Positions 1 to 28,097 of a DNA stretch of 62,008 bases are shown here, in pieces; the stretch's first letter is position 1, and each line of letters begins with the position of its first letter. The stretch comes from an uncultured bacterium (lineage in GTDB: Bacteria > Schekmanbacteria > GWA2-38-11 > J061). The stretch is taken from the NCBI GenBank assembly GCA_964549305.1, contig CAZJVM010000008.1:1-62008 (forward strand), read 5' to 3'. The position numbers and the translations under genes were made by a program. The notes beneath the pieces are model-generated. The model made no database searches. It saw only the letters and a program-made list of their open reading frames with translations, and was not told where the DNA came from.

Positions 1-242
1 GTTGTATCTAAAGCTATGAACACGTTATCAAACCTTTTAAAGACTTCTTTTTGAAGAAGTCTTTTCTTGACAGCTTTTTTGATATCATTTTCATAATAAA
101 CCATATATTTGATGTTTACATTGTATTGACATTTTATGTCACGCATTTCAAATTACAGTAAAATCTCCCTCTTGACATTAGTCCAAAAATCCTTTTCTAT
201 AGGTCGCAGTTTATTAAAAAACTTCAGAATAAGGAGACTTCG

Positions 243-923
243 GTGGACCCCAAAATAAAGGAAAAAATTCCCCTCAAGGGCATACGAGCGCGCATAGCAA
301 AGAAAATGACACAAAGCTGGACCGGCGCGCCGAGAGTTGCTGAAATTGTCCTTGTCAATATGGAGGAGGCAAAGAAGTTTGCCGATTCAAAAAAATCCGA
401 AGGCGTTACTATCAATGACCTTTTAATCCGTGCCTGCGCGTTGTCTTTAAAGGAATATTCGATTCTCAATTCCGCAATAATCGGTGAAGAGATTTTTGTC
501 TTTGAAAATATAAGCGTCGCATTTGCTGTTGCCCTCGATGACGGACTTATTACCCCCGTAATCCCCGAGGCAGACTCACTGAGTTTGAAAGATGTTGCGG
601 CAAAAAGGGCGGAAGTTGTGAAAAGAGTTCGTAAAGGGGAAAGGACTCCTGACCTTTTAACGGGAGGCACTTTCACGATAACAAATTTAGGTGGCGCGGG
701 AATCGAGCTTTTTACGCCTATTATAAATTTCCCGCAGTGCGCGATTCTTGGCGTTGGCAAGGCGATAAAGCGTCCTGTTGTCGATGAGGGGGGAAATATA
801 GTGCCTCAACTTAGTATGTATGCGTCTTTCGTTTTTGACCACCGCATCGTTGACGGACTGCCTGCGGCAAGATGTCTTGCTAAAATTAAGGACTATCTCG
901 AGAATCCCGGGAAAATGGAATAG
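243..923 (+). CDS. 2-oxoacid dehydrogenase E2 (dihydrolipoamide acyltransferase), catalytic domain only
   Basis: GTG start with AAGGAG RBS just upstream. Motifs IRARIAKKM, GGTFTITNLG, FTPIINFPQCAILGVG and catalytic DHRIVDG. No lipoyl or E3-binding domain; the upstream DNA is AT-rich and looks non-coding. Confidence 0.9.
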   Translation: MDPKIKEKIPLKGIRARIAKKMTQSWTGAPRVAEIVLVNMEEAKKFADSKKSEGVTINDLLIRACALSLKEYSILNSAIIGEEIFVFENISVAFAVALDDGLITPVIPEADSLSLKDVAAKRAEVVKRVRKGERTPDLLTGGTFTITNLGGAGIELFTPIINFPQCAILGVGKAIKRPVVDEGGNIVPQLSMYASFVFDHRIVDGLPAARCLAKIKDYLENPGKME

Positions 924-1020
924 CTTTTTCTCTGTGTCCTCTGTGGTTCCAAAAAATATTTTTAGATGTTGGCTTTGTGGTTAATTAGTTTTTAAAAATA
1001 AGATTTTAAGGAATTTCATT

Positions 1021-1785
1021 ATGAAGAAAATATTTAATCTTGAAGGTAAAGTTGCAGTTGTCACAGGCGCAGGCAAGGGCATAGGCAGAGCGCTTGCAAT
1101 CGGACTTTCGGAATTCGGATGCGACCTCGTGCTTGTAGCGCGCACCCTTTCTGACCTTGAAAAGGTTGCAGGTGAAATCGAGAAGAGAGGAAGAAAAGCG
1201 CTTCCCGTATCCACTGATGTCGCTTCAGAAGAGCAGGTCAACGCAATGGTTGCCCGCGCTGTAGAAGAATACGGCACGATAGACATTCTCGTTAACAACT
1301 CAGGCGTAAGCGGAGATAAACCGGTTCTCAAAATGGACCTTGATTACTGGGAATGGGTAATGTCAGTGAACCTTCGCGGTCCTTTCCTATGTTCAAAAGC
1401 GGTTGGAGCCCAGATGGCAAAACAGAAGAGAGGGAAGGTTGTAAATGTGTCATCGATTACATATCAGATGGCAATTGCAAATATGACATCGTACAGCGCA
1501 AGCAAGGCGGGCTTGGTGCAGTTTACAAAGGTGCTTGCCCTTGAATGGGTGAAGTACAATATACAGGTCAATGCCGTATGTCCCGGATACATAAGAACTC
1601 CCATGAACGAGGAGTTTTTTTCGTCCGATGCGGGAAAAAAAGTAATAGACAAAACACTGCCTATGAAGCGTCTCGGAGAACCAGAAGAGATGGTAGGTTC
1701 GGTGGTTTATTTTTCCTCGCCTGCATCTGATTTTACTACCGGTGCGGTGCTCGTTGTTGATGGGGGGCAGATTCTCGGGAAGTAG
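1021..1785 (+). CDS. short-chain dehydrogenase/reductase (FabG/KduD-like)
   Basis: TGAGKGIG Rossmann motif, NNSG, catalytic YSASK, VNAVCPG, C-terminal VDGG. Confidence 0.92.
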   Translation: MKKIFNLEGKVAVVTGAGKGIGRALAIGLSEFGCDLVLVARTLSDLEKVAGEIEKRGRKALPVSTDVASEEQVNAMVARAVEEYGTIDILVNNSGVSGDKPVLKMDLDYWEWVMSVNLRGPFLCSKAVGAQMAKQKRGKVVNVSSITYQMAIANMTSYSASKAGLVQFTKVLALEWVKYNIQVNAVCPGYIRTPMNEEFFSSDAGKKVIDKTLPMKRLGEPEEMVGSVVYFSSPASDFTTGAVLVVDGGQILGK

Positions 1786-1882
1786 AGGGATTTTGTTGAC
1801 TCACCTGTTAAAAATTTGTTAAGCCAACTGAAAAAAATATTAAGTTTTGGCAAAAATTAAATCAATCAGTCGGAGGTAAGAG

Positions 1883-3469
1883 ATGAGCATTATTATCGGC
1901 AGGAACAAGAACCTGAGAAAACTGCTTGAATATCAGGCGGAAGACAAACCCGATAAGGATTTTATAATTTTCATAGACAAAGATGAAAATGTGGAGACCC
2001 TTACATACAAAGAGTTTAACATCAAGGTTAACCGTTTCGCGAATGCACTGCTTGAAATGGGAGTGAAAAAAGGCGATTTCGTGACCTGCCATCTTCCTAA
2101 TTCAACGGGCTTCTGCCTTACCTGGTTTGCTACTTCGAAAATAGGCGCCATAATGATTCCTACGAACATTATGTCGCGCGCTGAAGAAATGGAATATATG
2201 CTTCAGCACTCCGGTTCAGGCACAATCGTTACCGATCCCGAATATCTTGATATGATTAAGAGCATTAAGGGCAACTGCCCCGAACTTAAAAATATCATTC
2301 TCTACCGATGCGAAGAAGCGCCTGAAGGCACGAGGCTTTTGAATGACATTCTTCAGAATTATCCCGATGAGCTGAAGGAAATCGTTGAAGTAGGGCCTAT
2401 GGATGTTTCGAATATGCTCTATACTTCCGGCACCACGGCAAGGCCGAAGGGGGTGCTTCTCACTCACGGAAACTCCCTTTGGATTGGGGAATCGATGGCT
2501 TGCGAGCAAAAGCTTACATCCGGGGACAGGCACATATGCGTGCTTCCCCTGTTTCACGTAAACGCGCAGTATATTTCCTTTATGCCCACAATTACCGCGG
2601 GCGCGAGCATTATCGTCTGCGAGAGATTCAGCGCTTCGAGATACTACGGATATGTCAGGGAATACGGCGTGACAATTACAAGTCTTGTGGCGACAAATGT
2701 AAGACAGATTCTCGCTCAGCCGCGCACTCCTCACGATGCCAATAACAATATGAAAAGAATCTGTTTCGCCATTGCAATAACCGATGAGCAGTGGGACGAA
2801 TTTGAAACACGCTTCAACACAACTCTTCACGACCTTTACGGGCTTACGGAAACGCTTGCACCCTGCACCTTCACCTGTATGCACGCAAAGCGGGTGAGAG
2901 GTTCGGTGGGGCTTCCCGCATTCGGCATAGAGATAAAGATTGTTGACGATGACAGAAAAGAAGTGCCCATAGGTGAGGTTGGAGAAATCGCCGTACACGG
3001 CACTCCGGGAATTCAGCTTATGAAGGGATACTACAAAAACCCCGAAGCAACCGCCGAAGTGCTCGATGAAAATAATTGGTTTTACAGCGGTGATTTTGGA
3101 AAGATGAATGAAGACGGATATGTGTATTTCATAGACAGGAAGAAGGATGTCATAAAAAGGGCAGGGGAGAACATTGCCGCGCAGGAGGTTGAGAGAGTGC
3201 TTACCGAGCATCCCGCGATAGTTGAATCCGCCGTAATCGGTGTGCCTGACGAAATGCGCGACTGGGCGGTTAAGGCATTTATACTTCTCGACGAAGGAAT
3301 GTCAGTTACTGAAGACGAAGTGAAAGAGTTCTGTAAAGAAAGACTGGCTAAGTTTAAGGTGCCCGAGTTTATCGAGGTAGTTACGGAGTTTCCCAAAACC
3401 TCAATAGGAAAGATTCAAAAGAATATTTTGAAGAAAATGGAACTTGAAAAGTCTCAGGGAAAAAGCTAA
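1883..3469 (+). CDS. AMP-forming acyl-CoA ligase (CaiC/crotonobetaine-CoA ligase-like)
   Basis: YTSGTTARPKG AMP-binding motif, YGLTE, SGDFG, DRKKDVIKRAGENI, PKTSIGKIQK; GGAGG RBS. Substrate unknown. Confidence 0.9.
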   Translation: MSIIIGRNKNLRKLLEYQAEDKPDKDFIIFIDKDENVETLTYKEFNIKVNRFANALLEMGVKKGDFVTCHLPNSTGFCLTWFATSKIGAIMIPTNIMSRAEEMEYMLQHSGSGTIVTDPEYLDMIKSIKGNCPELKNIILYRCEEAPEGTRLLNDILQNYPDELKEIVEVGPMDVSNMLYTSGTTARPKGVLLTHGNSLWIGESMACEQKLTSGDRHICVLPLFHVNAQYISFMPTITAGASIIVCERFSASRYYGYVREYGVTITSLVATNVRQILAQPRTPHDANNNMKRICFAIAITDEQWDEFETRFNTTLHDLYGLTETLAPCTFTCMHAKRVRGSVGLPAFGIEIKIVDDDRKEVPIGEVGEIAVHGTPGIQLMKGYYKNPEATAEVLDENNWFYSGDFGKMNEDGYVYFIDRKKDVIKRAGENIAAQEVERVLTEHPAIVESAVIGVPDEMRDWAVKAFILLDEGMSVTEDEVKEFCKERLAKFKVPEFIEVVTEFPKTSIGKIQKNILKKMELEKSQGKS

Positions 3470-3481
3470 TTTCAACTGCGT

Positions 3482-4105
3482 ATGAAATATAAATTTGATC
3501 TAAGAGTAAGGCGCGTAGAAAAAAAACGCCTTGAAAACAGGGAAAAGCTCGGCGAACTGCTTGCATCCCTTCAGAAGAAAAAATCAACGAAGTGGAAAGA
3601 TTCCTTCATTGAAGCCGACAGAAATATCCATTTCGGCGGCGCTATTACAATTGATACTGACAAATGTATTGCGTGCGGCGCCTGCGCCGAGATATGCCCC
3701 ACCGGCGCCATTGAAATAGATGACAGGAAGGAAACAAGATTCATATCACACAATATGCAGATTTGTGTTGGTTGCAGAAAGTGCGAAAAAAGCTGTGATG
3801 ACGATGCCATTAAAGCAGTGCCCGGTGTTAACCTGAAAAAATTCTTTGACGGTTCCACTGAGCTCAAGAAGGAAGCCGAGCTTGTCGCCTGCAAAGAGTG
3901 CGGAAGGCCCGTGGGACCAAAAGCCGCAATAGATAAGCTCAGAAAAATTCTCGAAGAAGAATCCCACACACACAGCGAACTCGAGTTTTGCCAGAAGTGC
4001 CGCAAGTGGAGGACTGCCTATGAGGCAACGCCGAGACTTTCCATTCTCATTGGCAGGACTTCATCTGAAATAACAGGACAAGAAGAAGGTGGCAAAGAAA
4101 AATAA
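3482..4105 (+). CDS. 4Fe-4S dicluster ferredoxin-like protein with extra CxxC pairs
   Basis: CIACGACAEICP and CVGCRKCEKSC, plus CKEC and CQKC. Its end overlaps the start of hdrA. Confidence 0.8.
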   Translation: MKYKFDLRVRRVEKKRLENREKLGELLASLQKKKSTKWKDSFIEADRNIHFGGAITIDTDKCIACGACAEICPTGAIEIDDRKETRFISHNMQICVGCRKCEKSCDDDAIKAVPGVNLKKFFDGSTELKKEAELVACKECGRPVGPKAAIDKLRKILEEESHTHSELEFCQKCRKWRTAYEATPRLSILIGRTSSEITGQEEGGKEK

Positions 4106-6515
4106 GAAAGAAGAAAACTCACCGCAAAACAAATCAACCGTTGAAGCGAAGGGCACTCTTTTTATATGCACCTGCGCCGGAGAGATATCAAAAACAATCG
4201 ACATAGAAACGATTGCGGAAAGATTAAAAAAAGATAACGCCTTTCATTCCGTACACATTCACGATTCCCTTTGTCAGCAGGAAGGGATAAAGTTTATTAC
4301 CGATGAAGTAAAATCAGGTGTTATAGATAAATTCGTGATTTCCGCCTGCTCACCGCAAAGCATCGGAAAAATATTCAGAGAAGGACTTGACAGGGCGGGC
4401 ATCGAAAGAAGTTATTACGATATCGTAAATCTTCGCGAAGGGTGCGCGTGGCCTCATTCAGACGACCCTAAAGGCGCCACCGCTAAAGCCCTTACAATGA
4501 TAAAAGTGTCCGCGAAGGGAGTGGAATGTTTCCCGGAAATCAGAAAAGAGGAACGGACAATCTGCGATAATGCAGTGGTAATCGGAGGCGGGCCTGCCGG
4601 TATAGCGGCATCCTTTGAGCTCGCAGAGGCGGGAATCAGGACCACACTCCTTGACAAGAAGCATTATCTGGGCGGGATGGCAATGAAGCTCGGGATTGTG
4701 GCGCCCACAAACGACTGCGGACTCTGCACAGCGTTTCTCGATACGGAAAATCTTGAAGTCTGCAGAAAATGCCTTTACAGAAGCAGGATTGACGCGCAGC
4801 CAAACCTTAATATTGTTACCGGCGCGAATGTCACTTCCATAAAAGGGGAGCCGGGACATTTTTCCATATCAACGGAGATCGAACCCCGTTATGTTGATAT
4901 TGAGAAATGCATACTTTGCGGAAAGTGCGAAGAAATATGTCCCGTGGAAGGGATTAAAAGAAAATCCTATTCGACTGTTACTACAAAAGCGGCTTCTCTG
5001 CCGTGGCCTCAGGCAATACCCCGCGCGTACCTCATTGACAGGGAAGAATGCAGGGAGGGTTGTATAGAATGCGAGGAAATATGTCCTACAAAAGCCATCA
5101 ATCTAAAAAGTCAAAAAATATCCGGGACATTGGAAACGGGCGCTGTTGTCGTGGCAACCGGGATAAGCGAATACAAACCAACGCCCATCGTTGAATATGG
5201 TTTTGGAAGATATAAAAATGTGATTACTCAGCATGAGCTCGGACACCTTCTGAATCCCGAAAGCCACACCGAAGGCGAGCTTATCAGGCCCTCTGACGGA
5301 AAGAAGGCAAAGAATGTGGTGATGATTCAGTGCGTGGGCTCGAGGGATAAAAAATATAACGAATATTGTTCGGAAGTATGCTGTCTTTTTGCGATCAAGC
5401 ACGCCATTCTCATTAAAGAGAAAACAGACGCGGAAGTTACAATCTGCTATATCGATATAAGAACACCGGGAAATTTCGAGAAGTATTATATGGATGCCCG
5501 CGATAAGTGGGTAAGCTTCATAAAGGGCAGACCGTCAAGAATAGAGGAAAAGCCTGAGAACGGAAATCTCCTCGTTGAAGTTGAAGATGTTTCCACGGGC
5601 AAAGATCTCCTGTTAAACGCGGACCTTGTTGTGCTTTCGAGCGCCCTGAGACCCGCAAAGGGTACTGACAAACTCTCTGAGATTTCCGGGATTGACCTTA
5701 ATGAATACGGATTTATAAAGGAATATTACGGCAAAAACCGCGCGACGGAAACTTCCCTGAAGGGAATCTATGCCGCGGGATGCGCGACGGGTCCAAAAAA
5801 CATTCCACTTTCCATTGCTCAGGGAAGCGGTGCCGCGGCAAAGGTAATATCGCAGATTAAGAAGCAGAAGGCGATAAAGGAAGTGATGTGTGCCGAGATA
5901 GACGAAGAGCTTTGCATAAAATGCGGAATATGCGTCGATGTATGCCCAGTAAAGGCGGTGGAAACGAAAGAAGAATTTACCGCGATAGACCTTCTTGAAA
6001 CCCCGGAAGTGAACAGCATTAAATGTGTCAACTGCGGGCAGTGCTCGGCATTTTGTCCCACGGGGGCAATTTGGGCAGGCAATTACAGAGAGGAGAATTT
6101 CATTCCTCAGATAGAGGAGACACTGGAATCATCATCGGTGAGACCGAGAATTCTCACATTCCTGTGCCTCGAGTGCGCCTACGCGGCAGTTGACCTTGCA
6201 GGGCTGAAGAAGCTTTCCTATCCTTCAAATATACTTCCTCTGGGAGTACCCTGCGCGGGGAAGGTTTCGTTGATTGATATTTTCAAGGCGTTTGAATGCG
6301 GGGCCGAGGGCGTGATTGTGGGCGGTTGCGCAACGTGCCACTTTAAAAACGGCAGGGATTATATGGTTTCGCAGGTCGATTTTGCAAAAAAACTTCTAAC
6401 TTCCCTTGGAATAGAGAAAGAGCGGTTGGAGTATTTTACCACGGCAATTTCAGACCATAGAAAATTTCTTGACATAGCGCGAAGAATGACTGAAAAAGTT
6501 AAGTCAATTTCATAA
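4089..6515 (+). CDS. hdrA: HdrA-family flavoprotein fused to a C-terminal MvhD domain
   Basis: N-terminal Cys set (ICTC, SLC, SACSP, NLREGCAW), GGGPAG FAD motif, PTNDCGLC, inserted 2x[4Fe-4S], IQCVGSRD..YCSEVCC, C-terminal ferredoxin, then MvhD-like FLCLECAYAAVDLAG/VPCAG/GGCATCH. Confidence 0.9.
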   Translation: MAKKNKKEENSPQNKSTVEAKGTLFICTCAGEISKTIDIETIAERLKKDNAFHSVHIHDSLCQQEGIKFITDEVKSGVIDKFVISACSPQSIGKIFREGLDRAGIERSYYDIVNLREGCAWPHSDDPKGATAKALTMIKVSAKGVECFPEIRKEERTICDNAVVIGGGPAGIAASFELAEAGIRTTLLDKKHYLGGMAMKLGIVAPTNDCGLCTAFLDTENLEVCRKCLYRSRIDAQPNLNIVTGANVTSIKGEPGHFSISTEIEPRYVDIEKCILCGKCEEICPVEGIKRKSYSTVTTKAASLPWPQAIPRAYLIDREECREGCIECEEICPTKAINLKSQKISGTLETGAVVVATGISEYKPTPIVEYGFGRYKNVITQHELGHLLNPESHTEGELIRPSDGKKAKNVVMIQCVGSRDKKYNEYCSEVCCLFAIKHAILIKEKTDAEVTICYIDIRTPGNFEKYYMDARDKWVSFIKGRPSRIEEKPENGNLLVEVEDVSTGKDLLLNADLVVLSSALRPAKGTDKLSEISGIDLNEYGFIKEYYGKNRATETSLKGIYAAGCATGPKNIPLSIAQGSGAAAKVISQIKKQKAIKEVMCAEIDEELCIKCGICVDVCPVKAVETKEEFTAIDLLETPEVNSIKCVNCGQCSAFCPTGAIWAGNYREENFIPQIEETLESSSVRPRILTFLCLECAYAAVDLAGLKKLSYPSNILPLGVPCAGKVSLIDIFKAFECGAEGVIVGGCATCHFKNGRDYMVSQVDFAKKLLTSLGIEKERLEYFTTAISDHRKFLDIARRMTEKVKSIS

Positions 6516-6634
6516 ATAATATTTTTAAAAAATATATGAAGGGAGGTGAGACGTAAAACAATCGTATTTAAGTTTCACCTGAGTTTTCACCAACAATGGT
6601 ATATGCCAATTTAATTTGAAGGGGGATTAATCAT

Positions 6635-7120
6635 ATGGAACAAAACAAGTTTATAATGATCAATCCGGAAAAATGTACGGGTTGCAGAACTTGTGAGATG
6701 GCTTGTTCTCTTTTCAATGAAAAAGAGTGCAGCCCGTCTTTATCAAGAATCCGGGTTGTAAGAAACGAAGCGGTAGGAGACAGTTTTCCTGTCGGATGTG
6801 CTCTCTGCTCAAAACCGGTATGTGTTGAAGTCTGCCCTACGGGTGCAAACTCCATTGACCCTGAAATGGGGACCGGCATAATCAATGAAGAAGTTTGCAT
6901 TGGATGCAAGGCATGTGTAAGGGCGTGTCCTTTCGGCGCCGCGGGAATAAGCTACAAAACAGGCAAAGCTTACAAGTGTAATCTTTGCGGGGGCGACCCG
7001 AAGTGCGTGAAGCACTGCCCTACCAAATGTCTTGACTATGCGCCTCTTGAGCTTACGGTAAGGCACCGCAGGCGTGCTCTTGCTGATGACGTAATCTCTA
7101 AGTTAAAAGGGGAGGGTTAA
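6635..7120 (+). CDS. 4x[4Fe-4S] electron-transfer subunit (DmsB/HydN-like) partnering the AOR
   Basis: CTGCRTCEMAC, CALCSKPVCVEVCP, CIGCKACVRACP, KCNLCGGDPKCVKHCP; ends 3 nt before the AOR gene. Confidence 0.9.
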   Translation: MEQNKFIMINPEKCTGCRTCEMACSLFNEKECSPSLSRIRVVRNEAVGDSFPVGCALCSKPVCVEVCPTGANSIDPEMGTGIINEEVCIGCKACVRACPFGAAGISYKTGKAYKCNLCGGDPKCVKHCPTKCLDYAPLELTVRHRRRALADDVISKLKGEG

Positions 7121-7123
7121 TCA

Positions 7124-9076
7124 ATGGACGGATGGAGAGGAAAAAGAATTCGTTTTAACCTGACCAAAGGCACCTGGGATGTGGAAGAAACACCTTATGA
7201 GTACAGGCGCAAGTGGTTAGGCGGTAGAGGTTATAACTCTGAAGTTCTCTATAACAATGTAGGACCCGATGTTGATCCGTTCTCACCGGAAAATGTGGTA
7301 TGTTTTGGTGTAGGGCCTATGTCAGGTACCTTCGGCCCATCTACGGGAAGAGTTACCGTTACGGCAAAGTCACCGCTTACGGGCGGTTTCGGTGATTCCA
7401 ATATGGGCGGTCACTGGGGTGCTGAGCTTAAGTTTGCCGGCTATGAACAGATTATCCTCACAGGAAAAGCTCCCAAACCTTCATACATCTGGATTGACGA
7501 TGACAAAATAGAAATCAGGGACGGTTCTCATATTTGGGGCAAATATCCGAGAGATGCTGACGCAATCATCAAGGAGGAACTTGGCGACAAGGATATCCAC
7601 GTTGTTACAATCGGTCCCGCAGGCGAAAATCTTGTACGTTTTGCCTGTACCTTCAACGACTGCTACAGAGCGGCAGGAAGAACGGGACACGGAGCTGTAA
7701 TCGGTTCCAAGAACATCAAGGCGATTGCCGTAAGAGGAACGGGCGGTGTCAAGATTGCAAATCCTGAAGAATACTTCAATATTTGCAGTGATTGGCGTGA
7801 AACAATGCGTACCGACCCCATGGCACAGGGACTTCTCAACTTTGGAAGTCTTATCCTTATTATGCCCTGTAACTATGAAATGGGATGGTTTCCCTGGAAG
7901 AACCTGAAATACGGTTATCATCCTGATGCAAGAAATATTTCCGGTGAAGTATGGAACAAGAAGCATTTACGTCACAAGGAAGGATGTTTCTCCTGTGCTA
8001 TCTGCTGTGGTATAGTTTCTGAAGTCAGGGAAGGCAAATATAAAGGTGAATACACCGGCGGACCTGAATACGAAGGCGCTGTGCCCACAGGACCAAGGGT
8101 AGGAATCATTGATTCGGAGACGACTCTCCATAATGCCGTGCTTACCAACAACTTTGGAATGGACGCAATCGAAGCGGGTGCTTCCATAAGCTGGGCAATG
8201 GAGTGCTGGGAAAAGGGATACCTTACAGCAAAAGACACCGGCGGACTTGAACTCACCTGGGGAAATGCTGAAGTTGTCGATAAACTGCTCAATATGATGA
8301 CATACAGGGAAGGTTTCGGCGACATTCTCGCGGAAGGACCCTGGAGAGCATCACAAAAACTTGGTATCGGCGAAGACTGCCTCACTGTAACGAGAGGAAT
8401 GAGTCTGCCTGGCGATGACCCGAGAGGTTTGGGTTTCGGATACGGCCTCAGTTTTGCTGTTGGTACGAGAGGCGGTTGTGACCATTTGAGATCACTGTGC
8501 TGTCTTGAACTTTCCGGCTATCTCTATCCGGGGCTCAATATGAAGATTGTGGGCACGGAAGAATGTTCAAAACCGCTGGTTACCGCAGGGAAACCGAAGA
8601 TGGTTTACTGGGAAGAAAACCAGAAAGCGTTTGTTGACTGCCTGCAGGTATGCTGTTTTAACACTCACTGGTCATACGGCTGCAGAAACGAACATCTGAT
8701 TCCCATGCTCAACGCGGTAACGGGACTTGATTTTACCGAAGAAGAGCTTATGGAAACAGGTGAAAGAATCTACAACCTTGAGAGAGCTTACTGGTCAAAG
8801 ATGCTCAGCGGTAAAAACGATGATACTGTGCCAAAGCGTTTTACACACGAGCCGATGCCTGAAAATCCCGCGGCAAGTTCCGGCAAGGTTCTGCCTCTCG
8901 ATGATATGCTTCCTGATTACTACAAACTTCGCCAGTATGATCCCGAAACGGGTTTTCCCGGTGATAAGAGACTCAGAGAGCTTGGACTCGAAGATGTAGC
9001 CGAGGAATTGAAACCATACAGGAAGAAATACGTCGATCTTCACGGCAAGAAAAAAGGTGGCAAGAAAAAGAAGTAA
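7124..9076 (+). CDS. aor: aldehyde:ferredoxin oxidoreductase family (tungstopterin) catalytic subunit
   Basis: LGGRG, KSPLTGG..DSNMGG.W..ELK.AG, IGPAGENLV, RAAGRTG.GAV.GSKN.KAIAVRG, CFSCAICC, GPEYE, RGGCDH, GERIYNLER. Confidence 0.92.
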   Translation: MDGWRGKRIRFNLTKGTWDVEETPYEYRRKWLGGRGYNSEVLYNNVGPDVDPFSPENVVCFGVGPMSGTFGPSTGRVTVTAKSPLTGGFGDSNMGGHWGAELKFAGYEQIILTGKAPKPSYIWIDDDKIEIRDGSHIWGKYPRDADAIIKEELGDKDIHVVTIGPAGENLVRFACTFNDCYRAAGRTGHGAVIGSKNIKAIAVRGTGGVKIANPEEYFNICSDWRETMRTDPMAQGLLNFGSLILIMPCNYEMGWFPWKNLKYGYHPDARNISGEVWNKKHLRHKEGCFSCAICCGIVSEVREGKYKGEYTGGPEYEGAVPTGPRVGIIDSETTLHNAVLTNNFGMDAIEAGASISWAMECWEKGYLTAKDTGGLELTWGNAEVVDKLLNMMTYREGFGDILAEGPWRASQKLGIGEDCLTVTRGMSLPGDDPRGLGFGYGLSFAVGTRGGCDHLRSLCCLELSGYLYPGLNMKIVGTEECSKPLVTAGKPKMVYWEENQKAFVDCLQVCCFNTHWSYGCRNEHLIPMLNAVTGLDFTEEELMETGERIYNLERAYWSKMLSGKNDDTVPKRFTHEPMPENPAASSGKVLPLDDMLPDYYKLRQYDPETGFPGDKRLRELGLEDVAEELKPYRKKYVDLHGKKKGGKKKK

Positions 9077-9096
9077 GAAGCGTTAGGAAACTCTAT

Positions 9097-9131
9097 TGCG
9101 GGAAGGATTGAATATCCTTCCCGCATTTTTA
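9097..9131 (+). terminator. intrinsic terminator after aor
   Basis: 12-bp perfect stem TGCGGGAAGGAT/ATCCTTCCCGCA, 5-nt loop, followed by TTTTT. Confidence 0.8.
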
Positions 9132-9177
9132 TCTCACAACACTTGAAAAAATTAATCAGCAAGGGTAATTCTATACT

Positions 9178-9486
9178 ATGAAGATTAATATAAAATATTA
9201 TAACCTGACTCTTGATGTCACCAAGAAGCTCGAAGAGGAAGTGGAATTTCCCGAAGGGACCACTGTAAACGAGGCAATAAAAAAGATGTGCGCCGTGTAC
9301 GGTTATACCTTTGAGCAAAGGGTAATGCTTACAATGGATTCTATGGAAGGCAAGGTGCAAAGGGCAAATGTGTACCTGAATAACCGCCCTGTTGATTATG
9401 AATACGAGTACCCCGACAAGCTCGATACGGTACTTAAAGAAGGCGACAAGCTTTCTTTCGGGTCCCTTATAGGCGGCGGTTTGTAA
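9178..9486 (+). CDS. MoaD/ThiS-family ubiquitin-like sulfur carrier
   Basis: MKINIKYY start, GTTV.E, LKEGDKL and C-terminal IGGGL; lies next to aor, as is common for MoaD-like genes. Confidence 0.8.
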   Translation: MKINIKYYNLTLDVTKKLEEEVEFPEGTTVNEAIKKMCAVYGYTFEQRVMLTMDSMEGKVQRANVYLNNRPVDYEYEYPDKLDTVLKEGDKLSFGSLIGGGL

Positions 9487-9642
9487 AGAGTATATCGATT
9501 TTATCCGTTGATACAGTTCCTGACCTTATTTCCTGTTTTCCTTAATTAATGCTGTTTTAAAAAAATTCCCGAACCGCTGACGGTATGCTAATCTGGCAAA
9601 GATAAACTTTATCCGATATAATCTTCCTGAAAGGATTTTGGG

Positions 9643-10569
9643 ATGAATCAAAGTCTCGCGCAATACCGAATTAAAATCTATCTGGTTTTTCTCGTTTCGC
9701 TCATCTTTGCCGCAACTGCCGTTTCTCTTTATCTGAATGTGCAAAAGACACGGGCGCAGTTTGAAACTTTTGCGCGAAAGAGCGGTCAGGCGTATTTCAA
9801 GGCCTTTGTCGTGACAAGGCGCTGGAATGCAATGCACGGTGGTGTCTATGTGCCTGTTACCGATAAAACGAAACCAAATAAATATCTCGAAGACCCTCTG
9901 CGCGATGTTGAAACTACGAAAGGTATGAAGCTTACATTGATAAATCCCGCGTATATGACAAAAATGATTTCAGAGTATCTGGAAAATGATGACGAAGTTA
10001 ACATTCACATCACCAGTCTCAATCTTCTCAACCCCGATAATAAGGCAGATGAGTGGGAAGAGAGCGCGTTAAGGGAATTTGAAAAGGGCACCGGGGAGGT
10101 TTCTTCCATAGAAGAAGAATCGGGCAGGGAGATTTACCGTTATATGGCGCCTCTTGTCACGGAAAAAAAGTGCCTTAAGTGTCACGAAAAACAGGGATAT
10201 AAGGAAGGGGATATCAGGGGGGGAATCAGTGTTTCATTTCCTTTCAGACAATATCGGGATGCCTCGGGCAATGCGCTGTTGAGAATATATATTGTCCACG
10301 CCCTCTTTTTTATCGTCTGTACGCTTTTGATTTATTCTTTGGGCAGAGCTTTGTTGCGTAATATCGTCGAACTTGAAGAGAGCATAAACCACATAAAACG
10401 CCTTGAGGGAATTTTGCCGATTTGCTCATCGTGCAATAAAATCAAGGATGAAAGCGGGGAATGGAGGCAGTTTGAAGGTTATATCAGAGACCGGAGCGAA
10501 GCACAATTTTCTCACGGACTCTGTCCCGATTGCGCAAAAGAGTTGTATCCGGATTACTACAAAAAATAA
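9643..10569 (+). CDS. membrane-anchored c-type heme sensor-like protein (DUF3365/Tll0287-like) with C-terminal Cys/His motif
   Basis: Two TM segments; WNAMHGGVYVP, NPAYMT, TSLNLLNPDN.ADEWE, YRYMAPL..EKKCLKCH (CxxCH), IRGGISV; tail LPICSSC...SHGLCPDC. Confidence 0.8.
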   Translation: MNQSLAQYRIKIYLVFLVSLIFAATAVSLYLNVQKTRAQFETFARKSGQAYFKAFVVTRRWNAMHGGVYVPVTDKTKPNKYLEDPLRDVETTKGMKLTLINPAYMTKMISEYLENDDEVNIHITSLNLLNPDNKADEWEESALREFEKGTGEVSSIEEESGREIYRYMAPLVTEKKCLKCHEKQGYKEGDIRGGISVSFPFRQYRDASGNALLRIYIVHALFFIVCTLLIYSLGRALLRNIVELEESINHIKRLEGILPICSSCNKIKDESGEWRQFEGYIRDRSEAQFSHGLCPDCAKELYPDYYKK

Positions 10570-10613
10570 CACTTTCGTTCCTGCCGGGTCTGAATTGTTT
10601 CATCGATTCTTAT

Positions 10614-11684
10614 TCAGAAAGCTCTTTTCCCATTTATGAAAAAGTGAATTTCGTCACGGTTCACATCCAGAGATATATTATCCCCCGCCGTATATTGAAT
10701 ATTTCGCTCCAGTCTGACTGCCATTGTCTTATCGATTCCTTCCGGTTTCACATAGGCGATTATCTGAGAGCCAGCGTTTTCGATATTTTCAATCCTGCCT
10801 TTGATGCTTCCCCTGTCCGCAGAAAAGGATTCAGCCCGTATCCCGATCGTTACCATTTCGTTTTCAAACTTTTTAATAATGTCTTTACTTCCAAGTGCCA
10901 ATGAAAAGCTTCCTCTTTTTAAGATGAATTTTCCGTCTTTCCTCTCAATTTTTCCTTCAATAAGATTGATTTCCGGAGTTCCGATAAACTGAGCCGTAAA
11001 AATATTTTCAGGATTGTTGTAAAGTTCGCCCGGAGTTCCCGTCTGCTGTATTTTTCCGTTATTGATAAGTATGATTTTATCAGCCATAGTCATTGCTTCA
11101 AGCTGGTCGTGTGTTACATAAATCGACGTAGAACGAAGCTTACCGTGAATCGAGGAAATTTCTCTTCTCATCTTGGTTCGAAGGCGGGCATCGAGATTTG
11201 AAAGGGGTTCGTCAAATAGGAAAAGTTCGGGATTCCTGACAATTGCCCTTCCAAGCGCCACTCTCTGCCTTTCACCTCCCGATAATTGGCGGGGTTTCCT
11301 TTCAAGAAGCCCTTCTATATTTAAGAGCTTTGCCGTTTCTATCACTTTTTCGTTAATTGTCGTCTTGTTTTCTTTGCGCATTGTAAGGGGGAAAGCGATA
11401 TTCGCGAATGCCGTCATATGGGGATAAAGGGCGTAGTTTTGAAATACCATTGCGATATTTCTCTCCCGCGGTGAAAGCTTGCTTATTTCATTTTCATTTA
11501 AAAATATTTTGCCGCTATCCTGCGATTCGAGTCCCGCAATGATTCGAAGCATTGTGCTCTTGCCGCACCCCGAAGGTCCGAGCAAAACGCAGAATTCGCC
11601 GTCATTGACGAAAAAGGATAATTCGTCGATAACTTTATTATTCCCGTATGATTTAACTATATTTCTGATTTCAAGTTTCTGCAT
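10614..11684 (-). CDS. sugar ABC transporter ATP-binding subunit (MalK/SugC-like)
   Basis: GPSGCGKS Walker A, VFQNYALYPHM, LSGGERQRVALGRA, DEPLSNLD, YVTHDQ.EAM. Confidence 0.95.
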   Translation of the reverse strand: MQKLEIRNIVKSYGNNKVIDELSFFVNDGEFCVLLGPSGCGKSTMLRIIAGLESQDSGKIFLNENEISKLSPRERNIAMVFQNYALYPHMTAFANIAFPLTMRKENKTTINEKVIETAKLLNIEGLLERKPRQLSGGERQRVALGRAIVRNPELFLFDEPLSNLDARLRTKMRREISSIHGKLRSTSIYVTHDQLEAMTMADKIILINNGKIQQTGTPGELYNNPENIFTAQFIGTPEINLIEGKIERKDGKFILKRGSFSLALGSKDIIKKFENEMVTIGIRAESFSADRGSIKGRIENIENAGSQIIAYVKPEGIDKTMAVRLERNIQYTAGDNISLDVNRDEIHFFINGKRAF

Positions 11685-11686
11685 TT

Positions 11687-12505
11687 TTACCCCTTAACCG
11701 CTCCCGCGGATAATCCCGATACGATTCTTCTTTGAAAAATCATTACCATTATTACCAGAGGAATAGTGGCAATCGTGGATGCCGAGGCGATTTCTCCCCA
11801 GGGCATAGTGTATTGTCCCTGAAAAAGAGCGATTCCCACGGGAAGAGTGCGGTAATTCTGCTCGGTCATTATGAGCAGGGCAAAGAAGAATTCATTCCAG
11901 GCATATATAAAAACGAGTATTGCCGCCGTAAAAATTCCGGGCATTGCCAGCGGGGCTATTATTCTCATCAAAACCTGAACGTGCGAGCATCCGTCAACCT
12001 TTGCCGCGTCTTCTATTTCAACGGGCAATTCGGCAAAGAATGCCGTAAGAATCCATATGCCGAGAGGCAAAGTCAGCGTTACATAAGGGAATACAAGACC
12101 CTTATAACTGTTGAGCCATCCAAGAGAGTAAAGTATCTTCCAAAGGGGGCCTGCAATCGATATCTGCGGAAACATCGACGCGGAAATAAGCGCTCCCATT
12201 ATAATTTTCCTGTGTCCGGTTTTCAGGCGCGAAAGGGCATAACCGGCAAGGCTCGAGAGGAGAATCGTAATTGCCGTTGTGAGAGACGCGACAATTAAGC
12301 TGTTTTTAATGAAGCTTAAGAGTTTGTATTCCTTTATCGCCGATTCGTAAAAATCGAGATTGAACGAGGGAAAAAACACAGGGGGAATGGAAGTCACTTC
12401 AATTTCCGTTTTAAAGGAAGTAATCAGAAACCAGGCAAAGGGAAAAACGCTTGCCGCAACGGTTATTATTACCCATATGGGAAAGAGAGCTTTTCCCTTT
12501 TTCAT
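11687..12505 (-). CDS. carbohydrate ABC transporter permease (MalG/SugB-like)
   Basis: Multi-TM protein; EAA loop EIEDAAKVDG; WNEFFFAL; C-terminal GLSAGAVKG. Confidence 0.93.
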   Translation of the reverse strand: MKKGKALFPIWVIITVAASVFPFAWFLITSFKTEIEVTSIPPVFFPSFNLDFYESAIKEYKLLSFIKNSLIVASLTTAITILLSSLAGYALSRLKTGHRKIIMGALISASMFPQISIAGPLWKILYSLGWLNSYKGLVFPYVTLTLPLGIWILTAFFAELPVEIEDAAKVDGCSHVQVLMRIIAPLAMPGIFTAAILVFIYAWNEFFFALLIMTEQNYRTLPVGIALFQGQYTMPWGEIASASTIATIPLVIMVMIFQRRIVSGLSAGAVKG

Positions 12506-13401
12506 CCTTCATCCCCCTTTATACCCTTGCCTAAAAACCTTATGTAGATTAGGGAAATTGCAAATAATACGACAAAGATTGAAACTGATATCGATGAGCC
12601 GTATCCAAGCTGTCCTTCCGCAAAAATTTTCTTGTAGCCGTAGAACTGAATTACATTCGTGGAGTCCCCCGGACCTCCCTGCGTCATAACGAATATGAGA
12701 TCGAAAACCCTGAAAGCGTCGATTGTCCTGAAAAGCACGGCAACGAGAATAGCGGGAGTGAGAAGTGGCAGAGTTATCTTTAAAAATCGCTGCCATCTTC
12801 CCGCGCCGTCAATTCTCGCGGATTCGTATAATTCATCGGGAATCGCCTGCAAGCCGGCGAGAATAAGCAATGCCGCGAATGACGAAGACTTCCACACATC
12901 GGCAACGATTATGGCGCCAAAAGCCGAAAACGGTTGCGCGAGCCATGCCCTGTAAAGTTGCGTCGCGTCTGCGAAAAAGAGATAATTGGCAAACCCGTAC
13001 TGGTCGTTAAAAATAAATCTCCACATTTGCGATGAAACAACGGTTGGTATAGCCCAGGGAATGAGTATTGCCGCCCTTACGATTCCCCTGCCTCTGAATG
13101 CCTCATTCATAATCAGCGCGATTGCAAGGCCAAAGAGGATTTCGAAGAAAACCGTTATGGCGGCAAATATGAAGGTGTTTGTAAAAGCATCCACGGCAAC
13201 TGCATCGTTGAGAAGTTTTTTGTAATTATCAAGACCCGCGAAGGAGCCAGAAGTGCGCGAAATGCCAAGCGTTTCATTTTGAAAACTTAAGAGAATGGAT
13301 GAGAGAATAGGATAGAAGGAAAAAACGGAAATAAAAAGAAATGACGGAAGAAGCAGAATATACGCGAAACTTTTTTCCCTTTTTTTGAATGAGTTTTCCA
13401 T
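12502..13401 (-). CDS. carbohydrate ABC transporter permease (MalF/SugA-like)
   Basis: LIPWAIPTVV, DVWK, LAGLQAIPDELYESARIDGA, FRVFDLIFVMTQGGPG. Confidence 0.93.
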   Translation of the reverse strand: MENSFKKREKSFAYILLLPSFLFISVFSFYPILSSILLSFQNETLGISRTSGSFAGLDNYKKLLNDAVAVDAFTNTFIFAAITVFFEILFGLAIALIMNEAFRGRGIVRAAILIPWAIPTVVSSQMWRFIFNDQYGFANYLFFADATQLYRAWLAQPFSAFGAIIVADVWKSSSFAALLILAGLQAIPDELYESARIDGAGRWQRFLKITLPLLTPAILVAVLFRTIDAFRVFDLIFVMTQGGPGDSTNVIQFYGYKKIFAEGQLGYGSSISVSIFVVLFAISLIYIRFLGKGIKGDEG

Positions 13402-13493
13402 TGATTAGCGCCGTCAAATTACGGTTTAAAGGAAAATTTAAGAAACTCAATTTAATTATTTAAGCTGAATGGATATTTTTCAACATTAAAAAC

Positions 13494-14783
13494 TTATTTT
13501 TTGCCGAGAATTTTTTCAATATCCGATGATGCTCTCAGTGCCTCTTTTTTAATGTCCGATTCAGTGCTTAATATTGCCTTGCTGAAGCATCGCTGTAATA
13601 TATTTGAAATTGATGTGTAAAAAGGCGTGACGGGACGGGGATATGCAGAGAAAAAAACTTCCTTCATACTTTTAAAATGAGGGTTTTTTTCAAGTACTTC
13701 GGGAGCTTCATAAAGTGATTTTCTTGTAGGGGGAAGCCCCGCTTCAATTGCGAGTTTTTTTTGAATTTTTTCTCCCGTCATAAATTTTATAAACTTCCAC
13801 GCCTCGTTTTTGTGTTTTGAAAAGGCGTTCATGCCAAGCTGCCATCCGCCAAGCGTTGAATAACTCTTTTTGCCTTTAAAGTGAGGTATGCTCAATATTC
13901 CCACTTTGCCCGCAATGCGTGAGCGCGCTGTATCGTTTGATATTTCCCACGCGTAAGGCCAATTTCTGTGAAATATAGATTTTCCCTGAATGAAAACATC
14001 GAGGGATTCCTGTTCCTGATAGGCAAGCGCGCCTGGCGGGGAAAGTTTATTTATAATTTTATCCCTTACAAATCGGATTGCATCGAGCGACGGAGGGTCT
14101 GCTATTTGAGGAGTTTGCGCCGTCTCATCGATTATTTTGCCGCCGTTTGTGAGAATATACTCCATCATATTGCATACAATGCCTTCATACTGTTTGAATT
14201 GTCCGGAAAATCCAAAGATATGCCTTCCTGATTTTTCTTCCCGCGCCATTATTTCCCTTGCCGTATCAAAGAGATTTTCCCAAGTTGATGGTGGCGCAAA
14301 GCCGTATTTTTCGAGCAGGTCCTTCCTGTAATAGAGTACGCCTGCATCGGTGAAAAGCGGTATTCCGTAAAGCTTGCCTTTGTAAGTGTTTGCCCGAATG
14401 GCGCCTTCAATGAATTGCTCTTTTTCATCTTCACCGATGAAACCTTCGAGCGGTTCCAACCATCCTGCCTCTGCAAATTCAGGAGGCCATATTACGTCCA
14501 TAAAGAAGATGTCCGCGTCGCCGCTTTTATTTTTCAGTTTTTGAGTGAGAAGGTCGTGAAATGCCGTTGTTGAATGAGGCGCAAACTCTCTTTTTATTTT
14601 GATTTCCGGATTTTCTTTTTCAAATATTTCAACTGCATCATTCCATACTTCCGGTTGGTCAGGTTTGAATGTTATAAAACTGATGATTGTTTTTCCGCCT
14701 TTTTTTTCGCTTTTGGTGCAGGCAGATGAAGACAGCAATAGGCAAAAAGAAATAAATACCAGAATAAAAGATTTATTTGTCAT
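13494..14783 (-). CDS. ABC substrate-binding lipoprotein, trehalose/maltose-type
   Basis: Lipoprotein-like signal (SSAC), MDVIWPPEFA, LYYRKDLLEKYG, QFKQYEG, RNWPYAW, LGGWQL, PRPVTPFY. Confidence 0.88.
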   Translation of the reverse strand: MTNKSFILVFISFCLLLSSSACTKSEKKGGKTIISFITFKPDQPEVWNDAVEIFEKENPEIKIKREFAPHSTTAFHDLLTQKLKNKSGDADIFFMDVIWPPEFAEAGWLEPLEGFIGEDEKEQFIEGAIRANTYKGKLYGIPLFTDAGVLYYRKDLLEKYGFAPPSTWENLFDTAREIMAREEKSGRHIFGFSGQFKQYEGIVCNMMEYILTNGGKIIDETAQTPQIADPPSLDAIRFVRDKIINKLSPPGALAYQEQESLDVFIQGKSIFHRNWPYAWEISNDTARSRIAGKVGILSIPHFKGKKSYSTLGGWQLGMNAFSKHKNEAWKFIKFMTGEKIQKKLAIEAGLPPTRKSLYEAPEVLEKNPHFKSMKEVFFSAYPRPVTPFYTSISNILQRCFSKAILSTESDIKKEALRASSDIEKILGKK

Positions 14784-15060
14784 TTATCACCCTTTAATCA
14801 CAACTATTGTTTTTGTTATAGTAGTATAACTAAAATCATAATTATCCAAATGTGAATTGCATAATTTTACCCTCCTGCCGGAGATTTTGAAATAATTTCT
14901 TCTTTGTATGTAGCGCGGGCGAAAATTATTAATAGATAGGAAATATTTTTTTGCTTTATCTTCAATGTTTTTGTAAAAAGTTAGTGCTTGCATTTTTTTC
15001 CTTATTTTATAAAAAAGCAGTCAATTATTAAAAAGTCTTTATCTTCTCCGGAGAAACGAA

Positions 15061-15630
15061 ATGGAAATAAAATTTGATGAACTTGACCCTGAATTCAAAT
15101 ATAAAATTGCGGAAAGGCCGGGCGGCGACAAGATAAAAAACTGTTATTCCTGCGGAACCTGTTCGGCAAGTTGTCCCGTGAGAAAAATAGACGAGCGCTT
15201 CAATCCGCGTCAAATAATACGGATGGCGCTTCTCGGATTGAAAGAAGCGGTTTATAAAAGCGATTTTGTCTGGCTTTGCACCGCCTGTTTCAGCTGTCAG
15301 GAGAAATGCCCTCAGGATGTAAAAATAACCGACCTTATGACGGTTTTTAAAAATCTTGCCACAGAGGAAGGGTATGTTCATCCTTCTTATGTGCAGGTAG
15401 GCGATTTTATAAAGGGGAGCGGAAGAGTCTATGAGCTTGAGGATTTTGACAACAAGAAGCGGTCTAAAGCGGGGCTTCCGAAGCTTCCTCTGAAAATATC
15501 CGAAGTGGAGAAGATCTTTGAAATGACGGGCTTCAAGGAGCTTCTTGAAAGCGCGAAGAAGGAATCGGCTGAAAAAGTTGAAACCGTTGAGGAGAGCCCT
15601 TCAGAAAACAATACAGGAGATTCAAAGTGA
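15061..15630 (+). CDS. hdrC: heterodisulfide reductase subunit C-like
   Basis: CYSCGTCSASCP and WLCTACFSCQEKCPQ; overlaps hdrB. Confidence 0.9.
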   Translation: MEIKFDELDPEFKYKIAERPGGDKIKNCYSCGTCSASCPVRKIDERFNPRQIIRMALLGLKEAVYKSDFVWLCTACFSCQEKCPQDVKITDLMTVFKNLATEEGYVHPSYVQVGDFIKGSGRVYELEDFDNKKRSKAGLPKLPLKISEVEKIFEMTGFKELLESAKKESAEKVETVEESPSENNTGDSK

Positions 15631-16511: not shown

Positions 16512-16531
16512 TGAAGGAGTGAAATTCCGCG

Positions 16532-24413: not shown

Positions 24414-24418
24414 AAAAA

Positions 24419-26344: not shown

Positions 26345-26346
26345 TC

Positions 26347-26367
26347 AAAAAGGGGTGACCCCTTTTT
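26347..26367 (+). terminator. possible intrinsic terminator after hdrB
   Basis: AAAAAGGGG-TGA-CCCCTTTTT hairpin followed by a pyrimidine run. Confidence 0.55.
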
Positions 26368-26477
26368 CTTCTTTCCTCTTGTATTCTTTTACTTGATATA
26401 TTTTAATAAAAAGGTAAAAGAGAATTTCTCTTTAAATCGGATGATCTATCATAAAATATTTTGGAGGGAATAATATT

Positions 26478-26927: not shown

Positions 26928-27016
26928 ATCAGACTAAAAACTTCCCCGCAATACCTCAGGAGAATTTCCCGATTTCTCTTCAAAAATATTTTTATTAAAC
27001 CGGAGTACGCGTTAAA

Positions 27017-28075: not shown

Positions 28076-28097
28076 AAACAATATTGGAAGAAAGATT

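Follow-up and report, generated by a model that had tools for sequence, protein, structure and literature searches.

According to a published abstract, no enzymes other than the tungsten aldehyde oxidoreductases are known to reduce non-activated carboxylic acids. The delivery or disposal of very low-potential electrons decides what these enzymes can do in the cell. A five-class scheme of tungsten oxidoreductases (WOR) from 2026 lists ferredoxin, NAD+ (via WorN), Bfu-type bifurcation, and membrane links as electron outlets in its accessible text, where parts of the heterodisulfide reductase (Hdr) type are mentioned only for benzoyl-CoA reductase (PMC13328260). The same text describes the WorABC bifurcating module of AmWOR1 as plugging onto WorSL nanowires (PMC13328260). 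In the benzoyl-CoA reductase complex Bam, according to a preprint, the inserted ferredoxin domain of the HdrA-type subunit BamE feeds BamC and then BamB, and the high-potential electron exits via BamD (bioRxiv 10.64898/2026.04.10.717634). Here, we analyzed a 62,008-nt stretch of DNA (hereafter, the window; positions 1 to 62,008 of the forward strand of contig CAZJVM010000008.1, assembly GCA_964549305.1) from an uncultured bacterium of Candidatus Schekmanbacteria, in which one operon places the gene for an HdrA–MvhD fusion directly before those for the AorA and catalytic subunits of an aldehyde oxidoreductase (AOR). As judged from their sequences, there is an even chance that these genes encode a WorLS-type aldehyde oxidoreductase with an Hdr-type flavin module as its electron outlet, and roughly half of that chance falls to a truly bifurcating enzyme. 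Complex formation, the direction of electron flow, bifurcation, and the substrate are features that we infer. The literature search found no aldehyde-type AOR/WOR joined to HdrA–MvhD; Supplementary Dataset 1 of PMC13328260 (> 4,000 WOR neighborhoods) may list such cases.

The initial annotation had read seven co-directional genes on the + strand, encoding a short-chain dehydrogenase/reductase (SDR), a CoA ligase, an Fe–S protein (here FeS207), the HdrA–MvhD fusion, a four-[4Fe-4S] subunit, the AOR, and a MoaD-like protein. All seven were recovered in place, with matching domains from Pfam and NCBIfam, and the fusion proved to contain a full HdrA with all cluster motifs. Its residues 21–681 aligned to the solved HdrA chains 9sfi_A, 8rvu_a, and 5odc_A with 411–433 bits, and residues 685–807 aligned to MvhD/FlpD. 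The domains were an N-terminal Cys4 domain, a TrxR-like flavin adenine dinucleotide (FAD) domain, an inserted ferredoxin, a C-terminal ferredoxin, and the MvhD [2Fe-2S] domain, which gives seven cluster-binding sites in 808 aa. All HdrA cluster cysteine motifs, the FAD-binding GxGxxG, and K437 were invariant in 25 of the 25 alignment rows, as were C693, C696, C722, C747, and C750 of the MvhD part (PF02662, 118 bits, residues 688–807). In the alignment, K437 pairs with Lys409 of M. wolfeii HdrA (5odc_A), which we take to be the flavin-N5 lysine. A conserved lysine at the flavin N5 is also described for BamE (Lys280) in the accessible preprint text (bioRxiv 10.64898/2026.04.10.717634). The best NCBIfam model was HdrA2 (647 bits; cut-off 1100), and the HdrA model scored 538 bits (cut-off 1400). 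By its sequence, the HdrA part is a complete single HdrA unit in one-to-one correspondence with methanogen HdrA. FeS207, encoded immediately upstream, has two CxxCxxCxxxC motifs and one CxxC...CxxC site, and these motifs were kept in all five orthologues. It scored 64 bits with a HycF-like NCBIfam model, and only generic 4Fe-4S clusters were retrieved for it from the protein atlas. Its best solved matches (9sfi_T, MvhB 9sw6_G, and FwdF) are polyferredoxin units wiring HdrA to partner enzymes.

Judged from domains and motifs, the catalytic subunit is an aldehyde-type AOR and no benzoyl-CoA reductase subunit, as had been noted at the outset. Its whole length is covered by the two family domains (PF02730, AFOR_N, 256 bits; PF01314, AFOR_C, 370 bits). 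Among solved structures, the protein matched Pyrococcus furiosus AOR (1aor) with 458 bits, 9mqx_D (WorL) with 424, 9g7j with 379, 8c0z_A (AorB) with 364, FOR with 292, and WOR5 with 224; the match to BamB (4z3w_A) was partial (residues 9–418) and reached 208 bits. The predicted GPEYE (G313–E317) and GxxH (G451-x-x-H454) motifs were present and invariant in all 23 aligned clade members, as were C288, C291, C295, C510, E315, and H454. The corresponding residues of the P. furiosus enzyme are presumably the [4Fe-4S] cysteines Cys288/291/295/494 and the Glu313/His448 pair near the metal. The four-[4Fe-4S] subunit is AorA/WorS-like; the 16 ligand cysteines of its four Cys clusters were invariant in 23/23 sequences, and its best solved matches were 9mqx_E (126 bits) and 8c0z_C (122 bits), with BamC far behind. 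No twin arginine or Tat signal was seen in its N-terminus (MEQNKF...). An adjoining four-[4Fe-4S] small subunit without a Tat signal places the pair in Class II WOR (WorL + WorS), and neither an AorC/WorN flavoprotein nor a NuoEFG-like WorABC (Class III/IV WOR) was found in window positions 1–10569.

The names carried by close homologues also assign the window to Candidatus Schekmanbacteria. The arrangement of these genes was compared within the phylum using five genomes from two families and four genera, the window genome included. The conserved block begins one gene upstream of position 1021 with a stand-alone acyltransferase (E2) catalytic domain (E2cat, 243–923). The order E2cat–SDR–ligase–FeS207–HdrA/MvhD–AorA–AOR was kept in 5/5 genomes, and the MoaD-like gene came next in four of them, i.e., wherever the contig continues. 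The same order was found in 3/3 related metagenome contigs with an HdrA identity of at least 53%, and aorA–aor directly followed hdrA–mvhD on a further contig of 2.8 kb (L033). The synteny of aor with hdrA–mvhD, which had been proposed as a check, was thus positive within the lineage; the metagenome contigs may stem from the same lineages as the genomes and are not independent. Spacing in the block is tight, with the FeS207 stop overlapping the hdrA start by 17 nt and a gap of 3 nt between aorA and aor. The flanks differ, with glycosyltransferase genes on the opposite strand in G004 and a HAD hydrolase gene downstream in G001. A Tll0287-like gene lies downstream in the window, G003, G004, and metagenome contig L124 (one family) and was not found in G001. 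In G004 (L091, 14457–15134), an IS200-like transposase gene on the opposite strand lies between the MoaD-like and Tll0287-like genes and delimits the conserved block on its downstream side. The identities of the HdrA–MvhD orthologues in the five genomes were 100, 80, 68–69, 55–56, and 53%; those of AOR were 95/91/88/89%, those of FeS207 were 80/71/49/47%, and the SDR and the ligase were 67–88% and 77–89% identical across the phylum. The rank order of identities was the same for all block proteins, which fits a block that was inherited vertically as a unit. The features of the operon are listed in the table.

Table. Features of the operon and its downstream neighbor in the window, with the evidence for each
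Feature	Position	Strand	Basis
E2cat, stand-alone 2-oxoacid dehydrogenase acyltransferase (E2) catalytic domain, 226 aa	243..923	+	Pfam PF00198, 228 bits
SDR, 254 aa	1021..1785	+	Pfam adh_short (215 bits) and adh_short_C2
Acyl-CoA ligase, ATP-dependent, CaiC-like, 528 aa	1883..3469	+	Pfam AMP-binding and AMP-binding_C
FeS207, 2x[4Fe-4S] protein of the HycF/TYKY and polyferredoxin-unit type, 207 aa	3482..4105	+	Pfam Fer4 families
HdrA–MvhD fusion, 808 aa	4089..6515	+	Pfam, NCBIfam, alignment to solved HdrA and MvhD/FlpD chains
hdrA–aorA spacer, 119 nt	6516..6634	.	No terminator-like site
AorA/WorS-like electron-transfer subunit, four [4Fe-4S] motifs, 161 aa	6635..7120	+	Pfam, solved-chain matches, motifs
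AOR/WorL catalytic subunit, predicted aldehyde-type tungstopterin enzyme, 650 aa	7124..9076	+	AFOR_N and AFOR_C
Terminator-like hairpin, 12 pairs (7 G-C), then T run	9097..9125	+	Consensus match only
MoaD/ThiS-like ('WorX') protein, 102 aa	9178..9486	+	Pfam and NCBIfam
Tll0287-like protein, 308 aa	9643..10569	+	Pfam

Outside the phylum, the HdrA–MvhD fusion was found with other partners. A protein-cluster search (5.8 billion) returned about seven clusters with at least 53% identity to HdrA–MvhD, all of the Schekmanbacteria type; the next relative was a Thermodesulfobacteriota protein (P0130, 43%), followed by many fusions of 36–40% named from Bathyarchaeia. The fusion was present in 52 of 301 sampled Thermoproteota genomes, where the nearest outside relatives had 36–41% identity. 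In the ten best Thermoproteota loci, HdrC–HdrB was adjacent to the fusion in all ten and lay directly downstream on the same strand in nine; in Schekmanbacteria, AorA–AOR occupies this downstream position. One locus of the Thermoproteota set (L119) had the order AOR–AorA–HycI–MvhG–MvhA–HdrA/MvhD–HdrC–HdrB, and therefore AOR genes beside Hdr systems exist outside Schekmanbacteria, too. A search of 401 sampled Thermodesulfobacteriota genomes gave no match at E <= 1e-150, but with two candidates scored per genome, this result is uninformative.

The AOR clade was scanned with one genome per species, which yielded 79 loci, 64 of them outside the Schekmanbacteria group with an AOR of at least 50% identity. 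The neighbors at 63 other loci were AorA (54), MoaD-like (34) and ThiF-like (21) genes, and an 83-aa open reading frame (ORF; 20). Eight Bacillota loci had NuoE/F/G-like genes directly downstream in the Bfu-type Class IV layout; the full AorA–AOR–MoaD–ThiF–NuoE–NuoF–NuoG-like layout, with AOR identities of 52–55%, was seen in L038, L039, L042, L044, L045, L046, L048, and L051. Five Desulfobacterota loci had a second AorA and a 425-aa Pyr_redox_2 flavoprotein (AorC-like), and the remaining analyzed clade loci had no flavoprotein. A maximum-likelihood tree of 69 AOR rows was built, leaving out partial AORs (< 600 aa) and secondary AOR copies and using five paralogues of the same genome and six loci of 36% identity as the outgroup. 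The five hdrA-linked AORs formed one clade (Shimodaira–Hasegawa-like approximate likelihood ratio test, SH-aLRT, 100), sister to the Desulfobacterota AorA–AOR clade, and the eight Bfu-linked AORs formed another (SH-aLRT 93) on the other main branch. The tree and the neighboring genes together therefore indicate that this AOR clade switched electron partners several times (none, AorC-like, Bfu, and Hdr). In the data searched, the Hdr-type partner appears to be the Schekmanbacteria-specific state of the clade.

Functional coupling of HdrA–MvhD to AorA–AOR is suggested because the exact block is kept phylum-wide despite changing flanks, because HdrA–MvhD has no other catalytic partner in its operon, and because AorA–AOR replaces HdrCB in position while the partners are modular in the AOR clade. 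In relatives, the outlet for the electrons of this enzyme is free ferredoxin, an AorC-like flavoprotein, or a NuoEFG module of the Bfu type. In the system proposed here, an aldehyde would be oxidized to the acid at the tungsten site, or an acid would be reduced to the aldehyde. Between the [4Fe-4S] cluster of AOR and the Fe–S chains and FAD of HdrA, electrons would travel in either direction through the four clusters of AorA and perhaps also through FeS207. At this FAD, the electrons would be divided between, or collected from, ferredoxin and a second partner encoded outside the operon. By analogy with benzoyl-CoA reductase, AorA–AOR could occupy an output branch of HdrA. In this respect, the comparison with class II benzoyl-CoA reductase made in the initial annotation is structurally apt, as in that complex the tungsten enzyme and its Fe–S subunit sit on the low-potential side of an HdrA-type module. 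Candidates for the third partner, acting in trans, are found in the same window: HdrC–HdrB at 15061–16511, the Hdr-like cluster extending to 26344, and genes for GcvH/LbpA-like, LplA-like, and radical-SAM proteins. A complex prediction for HdrA–MvhD (25-row alignment) and AorA (23-row alignment) scored 0.00 (mark 0.32) and is evidence neither way.

Several observations weigh against this coupling. A bifurcating enzyme needs a third redox partner, though none (HdrBC, hydrogenase, formate dehydrogenase, or NAD(P)H module) is encoded in the operon. The aldehyde/acid couple is about as low in potential as ferredoxin or lower (textbook values), and bifurcation is therefore thermodynamically unneeded for aldehyde oxidation. 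No hdrA was found beside the AOR in any of the 64 other clade loci, 46 of which had at least 3.5 kb of sequence upstream of AOR, and AorA–AOR is thus evidently able to work without HdrA. The prospect that the AOR would fall in a characterized clade lacking hdrA neighbors, named at the outset as a refutation, was borne out in part: all 64 other loci lack hdrA, but the clade is uncharacterized, and the hdrA-linked AORs form a fully supported subclade of their own. Within the phylum, AorA and AOR are 81–95% identical, versus 53–80% for HdrA and 47–80% for FeS207; the constraints on the two halves thus differ. The hdrA–aorA spacer is the widest gap of the block in all five genomes (119 nt in the window and 116–250 nt in the relatives), whereas FeS207 and hdrA overlap, which makes an internal promoter before aorA possible. 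Finally, the HdrC–HdrB, HdrA-like, and MvhD genes 5.6–17 kb downstream could be the true partners of HdrA–MvhD.

A rival reading is that of two separate enzymes sharing one operon or pathway, namely a ferredoxin-dependent Class II AorA–AOR, and FeS207 and HdrA–MvhD working with HdrC–HdrB from elsewhere in the window; the conserved gene order would then reflect co-regulation rather than a complex. We regard this alternative as a serious contender, albeit an unlikely one. It agrees with most clade members having AorA–AOR(–MoaD) only, with the largest gap of the block lying exactly between hdrA and aorA, and with the unequal conservation of the two halves. It also draws on a second Hdr cluster on the + strand at 15061–26344, which encodes HdrC (189 aa), HdrB (294 aa, two CCG domains), HdrA-like flavoproteins (420 and 562 aa; a split HdrA-like gene), MvhD (151 aa), a 1505-aa HdrL/NfnB-like multi-flavin protein, a second MvhD (162 aa), and a second HdrC (204 aa) and HdrB (290 aa). 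The absence of an adjacent HdrBC, stated in the initial annotation, therefore holds for the operon and not for the window as a whole, which has HdrC–HdrB pairs at 15061–16511 and 24861–26344, with the nearest CCG genes to the operon at 15627–16511 and 25472–26344. The HdrC and HdrB proteins of the window share 36–46% identity with the HdrC and HdrB encoded after the nearest outside HdrA–MvhD fusions. However, an ABC transporter on the opposite strand (convergent) separates the operon from this cluster, and in G001 the operon and the cluster are on separate contigs, whereas hdrA and aorA stay adjacent in 5/5 genomes. Furthermore, two separate enzymes would leave HdrA–MvhD without another candidate catalytic partner in its own operon, and the spacer contains no terminator-like site.

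The promoter and terminator scan found no terminator-like site within the hdrA–aorA spacer; overall, it showed no enrichment of terminator-like sites (11 found, 11.6 expected from shuffles) or promoter-like sites (15 found, 16.3 expected), and no promoter was callable in the spacer. The terminator-like hairpin of the table lies between the AOR stop and the MoaD-like gene. In the five-genome alignment of the spacer, the mean column identity was 51%, no σ54-type promoter was recognized by eye, and the only recurring features were the ribosome-binding site of aorA and an element resembling GGAGGTGA. This purine-rich element lies at 6530–6560 in the window, about 90 nt before the aorA start, and about 70–90 nt before that start across the five spacers (window and L090–L093); it may belong to a hairpin or act as a ribosome-binding site of a leader. 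An Rfam search of window positions 1–15000 gave no match at E up to 1, and thus no riboswitch for the molybdenum or tungsten cofactor and no other known RNA was seen. Words of the window occurred in three sequencing runs of DNA or unknown type (0.18–0.35 of the sampled words), none of which was listed as RNA.

Alternatively, the proteins may form one complex that does not bifurcate, with HdrA–MvhD and FeS207 serving as a plain FAD/Fe–S outlet, like AorC/WorN, that links the AorA wire to just one carrier. No third partner is encoded in the operon, a simple 425-aa flavoprotein takes the accessory role at five sister-clade loci, and aldehyde oxidation needs no bifurcation on textbook thermodynamics, all of which would suit such a relay. 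We nevertheless consider it improbable, as none of the cluster motifs of the bifurcating methanogen enzymes is missing from this HdrA, which also has the lysine in line with Lys409, and as 808 aa and seven cluster-binding sites would be an elaborate makeup for a plain relay. In the accessible parts of the literature found, bifurcation and confurcation are the only roles discussed for HdrA-type modules. A Bam-like reductase acting on a ligase-made acyl-CoA through a divergent catalytic subunit would account for the ligase and acyl-transferring E2 domain in the same operon and for the HdrA-type and MvhD-type modules beside a tungsten-enzyme/Fe–S pair, as in Bam, but this reading, and with it the acyl-CoA conversion entertained initially, is barely credible given the far higher score of the AOR with P. 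furiosus AOR than with BamB, the retained aldehyde-enzyme motifs, the four cluster motifs of AorA versus three in BamC, a single HdrA instead of the fused double HdrA of BamE, and an operon without BamB, a BamD-like CCG protein, or NuoEFG-like BamGHI.

Returning to the Hdr-coupled aldehyde oxidoreductase, its boldest form would be a minimal Hdr-type bifurcating tungsten enzyme, in which AorA–AOR takes the gene position of HdrC–HdrB on HdrA and one output branch otherwise held by HdrC–HdrB or ferredoxin. We view this form as a long shot. If it were true, a mid-potential donor would drive the reduction of a non-activated carboxylic acid to the aldehyde, below the potential of ferredoxin, and the SDR would reduce the aldehyde on to the alcohol, with the paired high-potential electron going to a thiol/disulfide acceptor. 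This acceptor would possibly be a lipoyl protein served by the lipoyl-less E2cat, and the GcvH/LbpA-like, LplA-like, and radical-SAM genes 17–21 kb downstream, which adjoin HdrC–HdrB in the stretch 24861–30081, would belong to that branch. The enzyme would then be the aldehyde/acid counterpart of the benzoyl-CoA reductase principle. The genes in question lie at 26478–30081, directly after the last HdrB, and comprise a GcvH/LbpA-like gene (26478–26927; 111 bits, PF01597), an LplA-like ligase gene, and two radical-SAM genes. They resemble what we take to be the lipoate-carrier and lipoate-assembly genes accompanying sulfur-oxidizing sHdr systems and may be relevant to the lipoyl-less E2cat. The 2.9-Mb genome has three FlpD/MvhD domains, all of which fall within this window.

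Clues to the substrate were sought in the accessory genes. E2cat keeps the DHRxxDG motif and has neither a lipoyl domain nor an E3-binding domain; the sequence upstream of it is AT-rich and non-coding in the window and also non-coding in L091. The best NCBIfam model of the ligase was CaiC (490 bits, under the cut-off of 651). Among solved structures, the ligase, the SDR, and the E2 domain had only generic relatives, and the ligase homologues carried only automatic names ('carnitine-CoA ligase' and 'AMP-binding') that indicate no substrate. The combination of E2cat, SDR, and ligase suggests that they interconvert one carbon skeleton as alcohol, aldehyde, acid, and acyl-CoA. In the two genomes of the second family, genes for E1α and E1β resembling pyruvate dehydrogenase (PDH) precede E2cat (367 bits versus the PDH E1α cut-off of 394). 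A Cys-rich ORF of 221–275 aa lies between E1β and E2cat in these Schekmanbacteria (L092, 4606–5271; L093, 15568–16395); it had no Pfam or NCBIfam match, and its stop abuts the E2cat start codon. Cleavage of acetoin by E1/E2 to yield an aldehyde for AOR can be considered as a lead only; in L069, an aco-like cluster was found near a distant AOR, with transposase genes in between. At the Thermodesulfobacteriota locus L066 (1–6212), a ligase C-terminus (53% identical over the last 55 residues) and hydantoinase/oxoprolinase A and B genes precede AorA–AOR, which is another acid-activating context for the AOR clade.

The MoaD-like protein and its orthologues end in a conserved SLIGGG followed by 1–8 variable residues (one in the window), with no free Gly-Gly, whereas those of other clade loci mostly end in GGAA, SGAA, or GGG; this suggests C-terminal processing. 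In the window's own genome (2.94 Mb, 12 contigs), 12 AOR-family (AFOR_C) genes were found, and only the AOR of the window adjoins an HdrA. The other 11 paralogues are at most 39% identical to it, and only two (C25 and C4) have an AorA-like neighbor. The AOR-family gene on C86 lies 3 kb from a gene for a 438-aa protein with two CCG domains.

If HdrA–MvhD and AorA–AOR are indeed coupled, the locus would offer a small four-protein system for studying how bifurcation of the HdrA type connects to a reaction that involves no disulfide. The locus would then also provide an initial entry point to the energy metabolism of this uncultured candidate phylum, represented here by a 2.9-Mb genome with 12 AOR-family genes.

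Among the described systems close to this locus, AmWOR1 WorABCSL (Class IV, Acetomicrobium mobile, PDB 9MQX; ElWOR1) likewise sets an aldehyde-type WorL and a four-cluster WorS on a flavin bifurcation module; 9mqx_D was the second-best solved match of AOR, and 9mqx_E the best of AorA. Unlike the NuoEFG-like WorABC of AmWOR1, the putative module here consists of HdrA–MvhD and FeS207, has no NAD(P)H-binding subunit, and is encoded upstream of worS–worL. Bam[(BC)2DEFGHI]2 of Geobacter metallireducens similarly places a tungsten-pterin enzyme and an Fe–S subunit on an HdrA-type flavoprotein with an MvhD-type adaptor. It differs in its catalytic subunit, which is of the AOR type here, in its three-cluster small subunit (four clusters here), and in its double HdrA (single here). 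Its BamF is a separate, selenocysteine-containing protein, whereas MvhD is fused here and has cysteine; moreover, BamD and BamGHI have no counterpart in the operon, as no CCG or Nuo-type gene was found in 1–10569. AorABC of Aromatoleum aromaticum (Class III WOR, PDB 8C0Z) shares the AorA–AorB core and the MoaD-like gene, but its NAD+-reducing FAD subunit AorC/WorN is absent here, and the HdrA–MvhD fusion is encoded instead. A full-length HdrA is shared with MvhAGD–HdrABC and HdrA2B2C2 (PDB 5ODC, 8RVU, and 9SFI), HdrA2 being the best NCBIfam model; the HdrA2 of Methanosarcina is itself an HdrA–MvhD fusion. Unlike these systems, the operon has no HdrB, HdrC, hydrogenase, or formate dehydrogenase, and the HdrA2 score is under the cut-off. 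A complete HdrA–MvhD kept phylum-wide beside an aldehyde-type WorSL core points to a further type of electron outlet.

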